From: Promethearchaeota archaeon
GTDB taxonomy: Archaea; Asgardarchaeota; Lokiarchaeia; Sigyniarchaeales; SOKP01
Assembly (NCBI GenBank): GCA_019058445.1
Contig: JAHPZA010000010.1
Span: forward strand, 352,001 to 416,000
DNA: 64,000 nt
Direction of reading: 5' to 3'
Below are positions 35,336-35,616 of this stretch, in pieces. A program made the position numbers and the translations under genes. The notes below the pieces were generated by a model. That model was given only the letters and a program-made list of their open reading frames with translations. It had not been told where the DNA came from and made no database searches. Numbering within the stretch: the first letter of the stretch is position 1; each line of letters begins with the position of its first letter.

Positions 35336-35483
35336 CCCCCCTTAGCTCAGTTGGTTAGAGCGCGCGGCTGTAGATAATAATCGCGTACAAAGGCTTTTGC
35401 CGATGAATGTGCGTCAGCCAGCAGCCACCGTGAGGCAAGAAAATGCCCGGTATAGGTCCCCGGCTCAAATCCGGGAGGGGGGA
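35336..35483 (+). tRNA. tRNA-Tyr(GUA) with two introns: 35374-35426 (position 37/38) and 35433-35453 (position 43/44)
   Basis: Acceptor CCCCCCT/AGGGGGG plus A73 (C1-G72, archaeal Tyr identity), D-arm GCTC/GAGC, anticodon stem CGCGG/CCGTG, GTA at 35370-35372, T-stem CCCGG/CCGGG. Removing both introns gives a 74-nt cloverleaf, and both introns have BHB motifs. Confidence 0.93.
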
Positions 35484-35616
35484 CTTTTAATTTTTAATTT
35501 TTTAAGATTTAAATTAATTAGTTTAAATAATTATTTTCAATTCTAAACTGATTAAGTTCAAAAAATTATTATTTTACACGTCATTATACACTATTATAAA
35601 AATACGATCCAGTTAC

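Follow-up and report, generated by a model that had tools for sequence, protein, structure and literature searches.

A tRNA-Tyr gene of a Sigyniarchaeales archaeon with two adjacent introns whose splice motifs compete for a six-nucleotide exon

Positions 35336-35483 on the forward strand of a 64-kb stretch of DNA (64,000 nt, called the window here) from a Promethearchaeota archaeon of the Sigyniarchaeales (Asgard archaea, Lokiarchaeia) hold a tRNA-Tyr(GUA) gene that is interrupted by two introns. The gene was noticed in a sequence-only reading of the window, and our analysis confirms that it is real. Its two introns are bounded by bulge-helix-bulge (BHB) splice motifs and leave between them an exon of six nucleotides, which is common to both motifs and for which the motifs compete. 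The gene is probably a functional, single-copy tRNA-Tyr gene from whose transcript intron 2 most likely leaves first, by a kinetic preference and not in an obligatory order. The kind of gene and the ordered processing of BHB introns are already known. The 6-nt exon common to two competing motifs is specific to this gene, and so is a possible helper helix provided by the neighbouring intron. Furthermore, we describe a covarying hairpin in intron 1 that resembles a kink-turn (K-turn), is found across the host's family and is new here.

The host genome (G000) is an assembly of 10 contigs with 4.6 Mb, 31% G+C and a completeness of 92.6%, and the window lies on contig 10. Exon 1 (35336-35373) covers tRNA-Tyr positions 1-37 with the acceptor 5' strand CCCCCCU, the D arm, the anticodon-stem strand CGCGG and the loop CUGUAG with the anticodon GUA, as read from the sequence, from ARAGORN on the spliced and unspliced forms and from Rfam. 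Intron 1 (35374-35426, 53 nt) is located at the canonical 37/38 site and is defined by BHB scoring and by a homologous intron in all recovered orthologues of the family. It is followed by exon 2 (35427-35432), the micro-exon ACCGUG of positions 38-43, in which C39-G43 are the 3' strand of the anticodon stem (sequence, BHB scoring and orthologues). Intron 2 (35433-35453) has 21 nt at the 43/44 site, with a hairpin of GGCA (35434-37) and UGCC (35444-47) around the loop AGAAAA and with the strand CGGU at 35448-51 (folding, shuffles and orthologues). Exon 3 (35454-35483) consists of the variable loop AGGUC, the T arm CCCGG-CUCAAAU-CCGGG, the acceptor 3' strand AGGGGGG and A73, and was assigned from the sequence, ARAGORN, Rfam and a T-loop comparison. 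All these features are on the forward strand. The coordinates, the exon and intron lengths, the 6-nt middle exon and all pairings given in the sequence-only reading each match the sequence and the BHB scoring.

Joining the exons in silico gives a 74-nt class I tRNA with all stems intact, which ARAGORN calls as tRNA-Tyr(gta). C1 (C35336) pairs with G72 (G35482) and the discriminator A73 is A35483. C1-G72 and A73 are the identity elements for the archaeal/eukaryotic tyrosyl-tRNA synthetase. The short variable loop of 4-5 nt that characterises class I tRNA-Tyr is obtained only with the 21 nt of intron 2 removed. CCA is not encoded at the 3' end of the gene. Immediately 3' of the discriminator, on the same strand, follows the T-rich tract CTTTTAATTTTTAATTTTTTAAG (35484-35506), which is likely to be an archaeal terminator, judging by its composition.

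Neither ARAGORN with default settings nor an Rfam scan at the gathering threshold detected the tRNA-Tyr gene when they were run over the whole 64-kb window. With introns allowed, ARAGORN reports a tRNA-Tyr(gta) with the 53-nt intron and takes the 21 nt into a long variable arm. The Rfam tRNA model (Rfam: RF00005) run with lax filters matches exactly 35336-35483 with 41 bits (gathering score 29) and places insertions of 56 and 22 nt. The earlier expectation that standard annotators may mis-call this gene was thus borne out: default finders overlook the sole tRNA-Tyr gene of the host genome or give it a false long variable arm. We found no second tRNA-Tyr candidate elsewhere in the 4.6-Mb assembly, so this copy should be functional.

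The splice motifs were scored with the rule of a published classifier (10.64898/2026.10.13.758758). It requires a central helix (H) of four pairs between exon positions -6 to -3 of the 5' site and intron positions -6 to -3 of the 3' site, 3-nt bulges that are cut after their second base, and flanking outer (h) and inner (h') helices. Both inserts have BHB-type boundaries with central helices of 4/4 pairs, in agreement with the sequence-only reading. In the motif of intron 1 (BHB1), C32-U35 (CUGU, 35368-71) pair with GCAG (35421-24), including one G.U pair, the bulges are AGA and CCA, and the 5-bp anticodon stem is the outer helix (h 5). The inner helix has a single contiguous base pair (h' 1) and the 5' site lies in a larger loop, which makes BHB1 an hBH-type motif, a point absent from the earlier reading.

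The motif of intron 2 (BHB2) has the central helix ACCG (A38-G41) with CGGU, the bulges UGA and AUA, and the 4-bp inner helix GGCA/UGCC. Its outer helix of 3 bp, including one G.U pair, is built by GCC at the 3' end of intron 1 (35424-35426, forward strand), which can pair with G45-U47 (GGU, 35455-57) according to the pair probabilities given below. In the primary transcript intron 2 therefore is a textbook hBHBh' motif (h 3, h' 4). After removal of intron 1 the outer helix falls to 0 bp and the motif becomes HBh'. Of 200,000 shuffles of intron 2, a fraction of 1e-5 had both a 4/4 central helix and an inner helix of at least 4 bp. When the sequence was scanned under strict hBHBh' criteria (H 4/4, h of 3 or more, h' of 4 or more, length 14-60 nt), (35433, 35453) was the sole match in the tRNA region. 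Over the 64-kb window the same scan gave 127 matches on the forward and 119 on the reverse strand, which are mostly background.

The strongest support for intron 2 is independent of any motif and comes from its absence in orthologues. A pattern survey of 135 genomes of the family matched 27, and 25 of these 27 orthologues read ACCGYG directly joined to AGGUCCCCGG, without the 21 nt. Just the host and one genome of the same genus (G003) carry the insert. The insert-free orthologues come from three genera and have the 5-nt variable loop AGGUC. The alignment alone permits any intron position from 43/44 to 46/47, with insert and exon 3 both starting with AGG, and it is the BHB motif that selects 43/44. 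The intron 2 of G003 differs from that of the host in the hairpin loop only, which is AUAUAA instead of AGAAAA, and one contig of a marine-sediment metagenome shares intron 2 with an extra A in this loop. Intron 1 is present in all recovered orthologues, so the same absence test is inapplicable to it. Seen across these orthologues, intron 1 appears to be ancient in the family and intron 2 to be common only to the closest relative found and the one metagenome contig.

The 3' end of intron 1 differs between the genomes with and without intron 2. In most orthologues intron 1 ends with ...GUCAGCC followed by GAU, GAA or GAC, and the central helix has 3/4 pairs (CUGU/GCCG, with U33 opposite a C). 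In the host and G003 it ends with ...GUCAGCC-AG-CAGCC. The second CAGCC makes the central helix of BHB1 perfect and supplies the GCC for the outer helix of BHB2. The remodelled end coincides with intron 2. As one evolutionary event, this is no more than suggestive of an interlock between the two introns.

The two motifs exclude each other, as had been proposed. C39, C40 and G41 have two alternative sets of partners: G31, G30 and C29 in the anticodon stem, used by BHB1 as its outer helix, and the intron-2 strand CGGU in BHB2. One molecule hence presents a single splice substrate at a time, and this is evident from the sequence alone. Both motifs can nevertheless be drawn on the primary transcript and neither requires the prior removal of the other intron to be drawn, so this is not a nested or ordered arrangement in which one BHB is blocked until the other intron is gone.

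In the minimum free energy (MFE) structure of the full precursor, at -59.1 kcal/mol, the acceptor, D and T arms are formed, as is BHB2 in full with its outer helix to intron 1. With BHB1 enforced, the best conformer reaches -52.2 kcal/mol. In the ensemble of the full precursor the pair probabilities are 0.93-0.97 for the central helix of BHB2, 0.66-0.73 for its outer helix and 0.02 for the central helix of BHB1. Without intron 1 the outer-helix pairs have a probability of 0, and the earlier statement that the full BHB2 needs intron 1 to be present (3 bp with it, 0 bp without it) thereby holds. In folds of transcript prefixes BHB2 is present once its 3' strand is transcribed, and BHB1 is the minority state at each modelled stage. 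Folding of the G003 precursor gives the same picture.

Two kinds of genes were searched for as the splicing machinery. A gene for RtcB is present in the host genome. The sole gene of the endonuclease EndA family in the assembly is on contig 9 (770313-770918; L031:1219-1824) and aligns to the EndA of Methanocaldococcus jannaschii. It has F/S/K in place of the catalytic Y/H/K, which makes it beta-like, and is the orthologue of the second paralogue of its relatives. All nine genomes of the same genus that were compared have a catalytic alpha paralogue, and eight of the nine also have the beta-like one. The alpha paralogue of G003 keeps Tyr/His/Lys, has its best alignment with the EndA catalytic subunit of Aeropyrum pernix (E = 1.7e-37) and shares with it the inserted loop GxYGxPLxxxKPR. 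This loop (L1/CSL) has been assigned to the EndA of Asgard and TACK archaea and linked to cleavage of relaxed motifs of the hBH and HBh' types (PMC5829648).

We propose that the primary transcript would fold directly into BHB2, whose outer helix is completed by the GCC at the end of intron 1, and that EndA would remove intron 2 first in most molecules. The anticodon stem would then form and intron 1 would be cut. EndA would thus cut both BHB introns, and RtcB would rejoin the exons. The gene, its boundaries, the motifs, their mutual exclusion and the comparative pattern are shown by the data, whereas the occurrence of splicing, its enzymes and its order are what we infer. To the kinetic preference for intron 2, taken by itself, we give about an even chance or somewhat better. 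The sequence-only reading had also put the removal of intron 2 before a refolding of the RNA. This part is consistent with the MFE structure and the ensemble (0.93-0.97 for the central helix of BHB2 and about 2% for BHB1), and stands as a prediction.

Several results weigh against this reading. A catalytic EndA alpha was found neither by phmmer on all open reading frames of the 92.6%-complete assembly nor by tblastn with the G003 protein, which return the beta-like locus only; the alpha gene is presumed to belong to the portion of the genome that is not assembled. The inner helix of intron 1 is just 1 bp, so an enzyme for relaxed motifs would be needed in any case. Shuffled intron-1 sequences give BHB2 an outer helix of at least 3 bp in 12% of cases, and the host and G003 are identical there, so that this helix offers no covariation test. 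Taking out intron 1 in silico leaves the core of BHB2 (HBh') as the favoured fold, with a probability of 0.71-0.78. The dominance of this core without intron 1 means that the opposite splicing order is not blocked. Moreover, for nearly all of the 27 orthologues BHB1 lies 5-9 kcal/mol above the MFE in the folding model, also where intron 1 is the only intron, and the invariant intron bases CAGCC there pair with G30-G34. Because BHB1 is disfavoured in nearly every orthologue, its low estimate is unusable as a rate, and we rejected the MFE ranking of BHB1 as decisive. The T-loop has C54 where class I tRNA-Tyr usually has U54. Lastly, one metatranscriptome, available beside 19 DNA runs, has no contig with the locus in spliced form (word share 0.05). 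The only metatranscriptome piece on exon 3 belongs to a relative without a 43/44 insert, in which intron 1 is still in place, and this piece may be DNA carry-over.

The sequence-only reading went further and took the motifs as "implying ordered splicing". In its strict form this would mean that intron 2 is cut only with intron 1 present, for the sake of the GCC, and intron 1 only afterwards, which we consider unlikely. It is true that a complete hBHBh' for intron 2 is confined to the primary transcript (outer helix of 3 bp against 0), that the outer pairs are predicted with a probability of 0.66-0.73, and that the host and G003 share both intron 2 and the end ...CAGCC-AG-CAGCC, where others end with GAU, GAA, GAC and the like. 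However, 12% of shuffles yield a 3-bp helix when G.U is allowed, the HBh' core forms without intron 1, and the co-occurrence amounts to one evolutionary event. Furthermore, the EndA alpha of the genus has the crenarchaeal-type loop that is linked to hBH and HBh' cleavage (PMC5829648), and the 43/44 inserts of another genus, described below, are conserved despite 3/4 central pairs and no outer helix. At the other end stands the view that the precursor breathes between conformers and a broad-specificity EndA cuts either motif, so that both intermediates occur. This is rather unlikely in our estimate. Both motifs fit published canonical classes, with intron 1 as hBH and intron 2 as hBHBh' or HBh' (10.64898/2026.10.13.758758), nearest-neighbour energies give a wrong picture of BHB1 in almost every orthologue, and the genus has an EndA of a type that tolerates relaxed motifs (PMC5829648). 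Against it, BHB2 is strongly pre-formed in the full precursor from transcription onward, BHB1 is a minority at every modelled stage, and the 37/38 intron is always last in Cyanidioschyzon merolae, an experimental system with several BHB introns (PMC3728597). An order is therefore not implied by the motifs: the helper helix is expected in 12% of shuffles, the BHB2 core persists without intron 1, the EndA of the genus is of the relaxed-motif type, the BHB1 energies are unreliable and no RNA data were found, and a preference for intron 2 in most molecules is the reading that we retain.

Two further explanations would deny that there are two introns or that the gene works. If the 21 nt were kept as a long variable arm of the mature tRNA-Tyr, the placement of 21-22 nt in the variable region by the intron-aware ARAGORN and the Rfam tRNA model would be correct, and bacterial tRNA-Tyr is indeed class II. 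But the orthologues of three genera have AGGUC and no insert, the insert forms a perfect BHB, and the cut sites restore the 5-nt loop. Judged from the sequence, the arm would be a 4-bp stem with an 11-nt unpaired tail, and we know of no variable arm like this. C1-G72, moreover, marks the archaeal/eukaryotic-type class I tRNA-Tyr. This class I lineage and the cut sites that restore the 5-nt loop make a long variable arm very unlikely. The gene might also be a decaying pseudogene, with the functional tRNA-Tyr in an unassembled part of the genome. The assembly, at 92.6% completeness in 10 contigs, does have gaps, and C54 is unusual. Yet the assembly has no other tRNA-Tyr candidate, all stems are intact after splicing, G003 keeps the two-intron architecture, and the substitutions between relatives fall in loops. 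C54 itself is conserved in all recovered tRNA-Tyr orthologues of the family and is thus a trait of the lineage and not a sign of decay, which leaves the pseudogene barely conceivable. The functional gene with two introns and a preferred, non-obligatory order accordingly remains our reading.

The hairpin in intron 1 (35381-35420, forward strand) was identified from alignments, covariation and a covariance model. Its stem P1 is formed by 35384-88 and 35409-13 and its distal C-stem by 35392-94 and 35399-401. In the host the internal loop has AAA on the 5' side and GAUGAAU on the 3' side, and an invariant UCAGCC follows the hairpin. The 25 distinct orthologues have a 5-bp P1, an internal loop of N-R-A (3 nt, 5' side) against N-R-U-G-A-N-N (7 nt, 3' side), and a 3-bp distal stem with a loop of 4-5 nt. 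UGA and the A adjoining the distal stem are invariant in the internal loop. Seven pairs change on both sides, 94.8% of the cells are paired, none of 500 shuffles reaches the score, and slid registers all collapse. The covariance model (R1) finds the hairpin in 107 of 126 genomes of the family and in 12 of its 13 genera, almost always once per genome; the host genome has one copy and no second one was found in it. Beyond the family, the model matched one of 13 genomes of the sister family and none of the other sampled members of the class. A conserved, covarying hairpin of this kind suggests that intron 1 is more than filler. In one orthologue (G140, L130) we observed two copies of it.

The elements of a K-turn that are seen in the alignment are the covarying 3-bp C-stem, the bulge N-R-U, the invariant GA on the bulged strand and the invariant A at position 1n. 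Position 2n is G in seven and A in 18 of the 25 sequences. An A.A pair at 2b.2n is known in a rare natural K-turn. The layout of the loop would therefore correspond to a K-turn with a stem, a 3-nt bulge, a G.A pair and then A.G or A.A. Genes of the L7Ae family are present in the host genome, and the hairpin may bind L7Ae. Neither a box D (CUGA) nor a second C'/D' pair was found with the intron-1 hairpin, and without a box D there is no case for a methylation guide.

The hairpin and the remodelled intron end could be brought together in one interlocked, self-timing unit. The CAGCC-remodelled intron 1 would aid intron 2 in cis and so force it to leave first, and the K-turn-like hairpin would recruit L7Ae, which would remodel the GGCUG:CAGCC pairing into the anticodon stem and BHB1. 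We regard this scheme as improbable. If it were true, it would mean a protein-assisted and obligatorily ordered tRNA splicing in the archaeal group closest to eukaryotes.

Asgard tRNA genes with several introns, including insertions in the variable region and genes missed by annotators, have been published (Valentin-Alvarado et al. 2024, PMC11291895; Goswami et al. 2026, 10.64898/2026.10.13.758758). The gene described here resembles the published Asgard cases in its several BHB inserts per tRNA, non-canonical positions, patchy gain and loss and the two EndA paralogues. Those studies, in contrast, centre on Atabeyarchaeia, Freyarchaeia and Jordiarchaeia, and the term Lokiarch is absent from the main text of the preprint (10.64898/2026.10.13.758758). 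They contain no analysis of splicing order, of competition between neighbouring motifs or of conserved intron structure. The sharing of motif bases by closely spaced introns is not settled in recent studies of Asgard tRNA introns.

Multiple and nested tRNA introns are known from Thermoproteales (Sugahara et al. 2007, 2008, as cited in PMC3728597, PMC4090602). As far as these citing papers relay them, they too have two to three BHB introns per tRNA, short exons and a heterotetrameric EndA. In the nested cases, by the same accounts, the BHB of the last intron cannot form until the others have been excised, and the order is thereby forced. The introns described here are adjacent and not nested, and compared with these accounts the suggested dependence is reversed, as the neighbouring intron would help to complete the motif. 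In Cyanidioschyzon merolae, non-canonical BHBs of lower free energy are processed before the 37/38 intron, which always comes last (Soma et al. 2013, PMC3728597), and this is the order that we predict here. This organism, however, is a eukaryotic alga with independently folding motifs and an order established by reverse transcription PCR, whereas here the motifs share bases and the order is predicted.

Regarding the hairpin, the canonical 37/38 intron of euryarchaeal pre-tRNA-Trp contains a box C/D (K-turn) guide RNA (Singh et al. 2004, as cited in PMC4090602). Both genes have an intron at this site, with, according to that citing source, a conserved K-turn of the L7Ae type in tRNA-Trp and what appears to be a K-turn-like element in our tRNA-Tyr. 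The tRNA-Tyr intron differs in having a single K-turn-like hairpin, in which no box D or second C'/D' was found.

The gene is a compact test case, since introns that lie a few bases apart must share motif bases and the RNA has to refold between the cuts. Relatives whose tRNA-Tyr gene has one, two or three introns provide natural controls, as do a weaker 43/44 insert in another genus and the known pair of EndA paralogues within the genus.

This weaker insert has 30 nt, is located at the same 43/44 site and was observed in eight genomes of the genus g11 (L144-L151) and in two metagenome contigs (L073 and L078), one of which has the accession prefix LAZR01. These inserts end with YCGGGAA or CAGGAA at the 3' side, have 3/4 or 2/4 central pairs and no outer helix, and contain an inner hairpin that covaries. 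For L073 and L078, a strict BHB search on the 30-nt insert gave a 4/4 central helix at none of the boundaries from which the tRNA would be restored. In G064 the inner hairpin of the 30-nt insert has decayed to A/U pairs, and in G091 the insert hairpin GGCA-N6-UGCC resembles that of the host. By this resemblance, the 21-nt and 30-nt inserts may be homologous. A search of the host genome for a paralogous source of intron 2 returned chance matches of 10-14 nt only and no sign of intron transposition. Scans of genome and metagenome contig collections for tRNA-Tyr with both inserts gave mostly chance matches in GC-rich bacteria. Other matches were archaeal tRNA-Tyr genes with one long 37/38 intron, namely in Iainarchaeum, in a metagenome-assembled genome of Halobacteriales and in two metagenome contigs.

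Of the 27 orthologues, 19 (e.g. L088-L093) have a third intron, of 28-31 nt, at the T-loop position 59/60; it is absent in eight, including the host. G003 (L090) carries all three introns. An intron of 31 nt in the T-loop has also been described for lokiarchaeal tRNA-Sec (PMC4989117). The T-loop of the host gene (35464-35470) reads CUCAAAU and has C54, just as the sequence-only reading had it, and the 13 other tRNAs checked in the host genome have UUC. In the orthologues with the 59/60 intron, C54 pairs with a G within the central helix CUCA/UGAG of that intron. It is speculation that this pairing explains the fixation of C54.

In six orthologues (L124, L126, L128, L130, L132 and L135) no D arm was seen directly upstream of the anticodon stem. 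From this, exon 1 seems to be interrupted once more in these genes.

Genome-wide, ARAGORN with introns allowed reports 23 tRNA-like genes in the 4.6 Mb of the host, several of which are dubious, and the Rfam tRNA model reports 16. Most tRNA genes of the host genome are probably hidden by introns, and the low count of about 16-23 fits the published Asgard pattern of tRNA genes with many interruptions that annotators under-call (PMC11291895; 10.64898/2026.10.13.758758).

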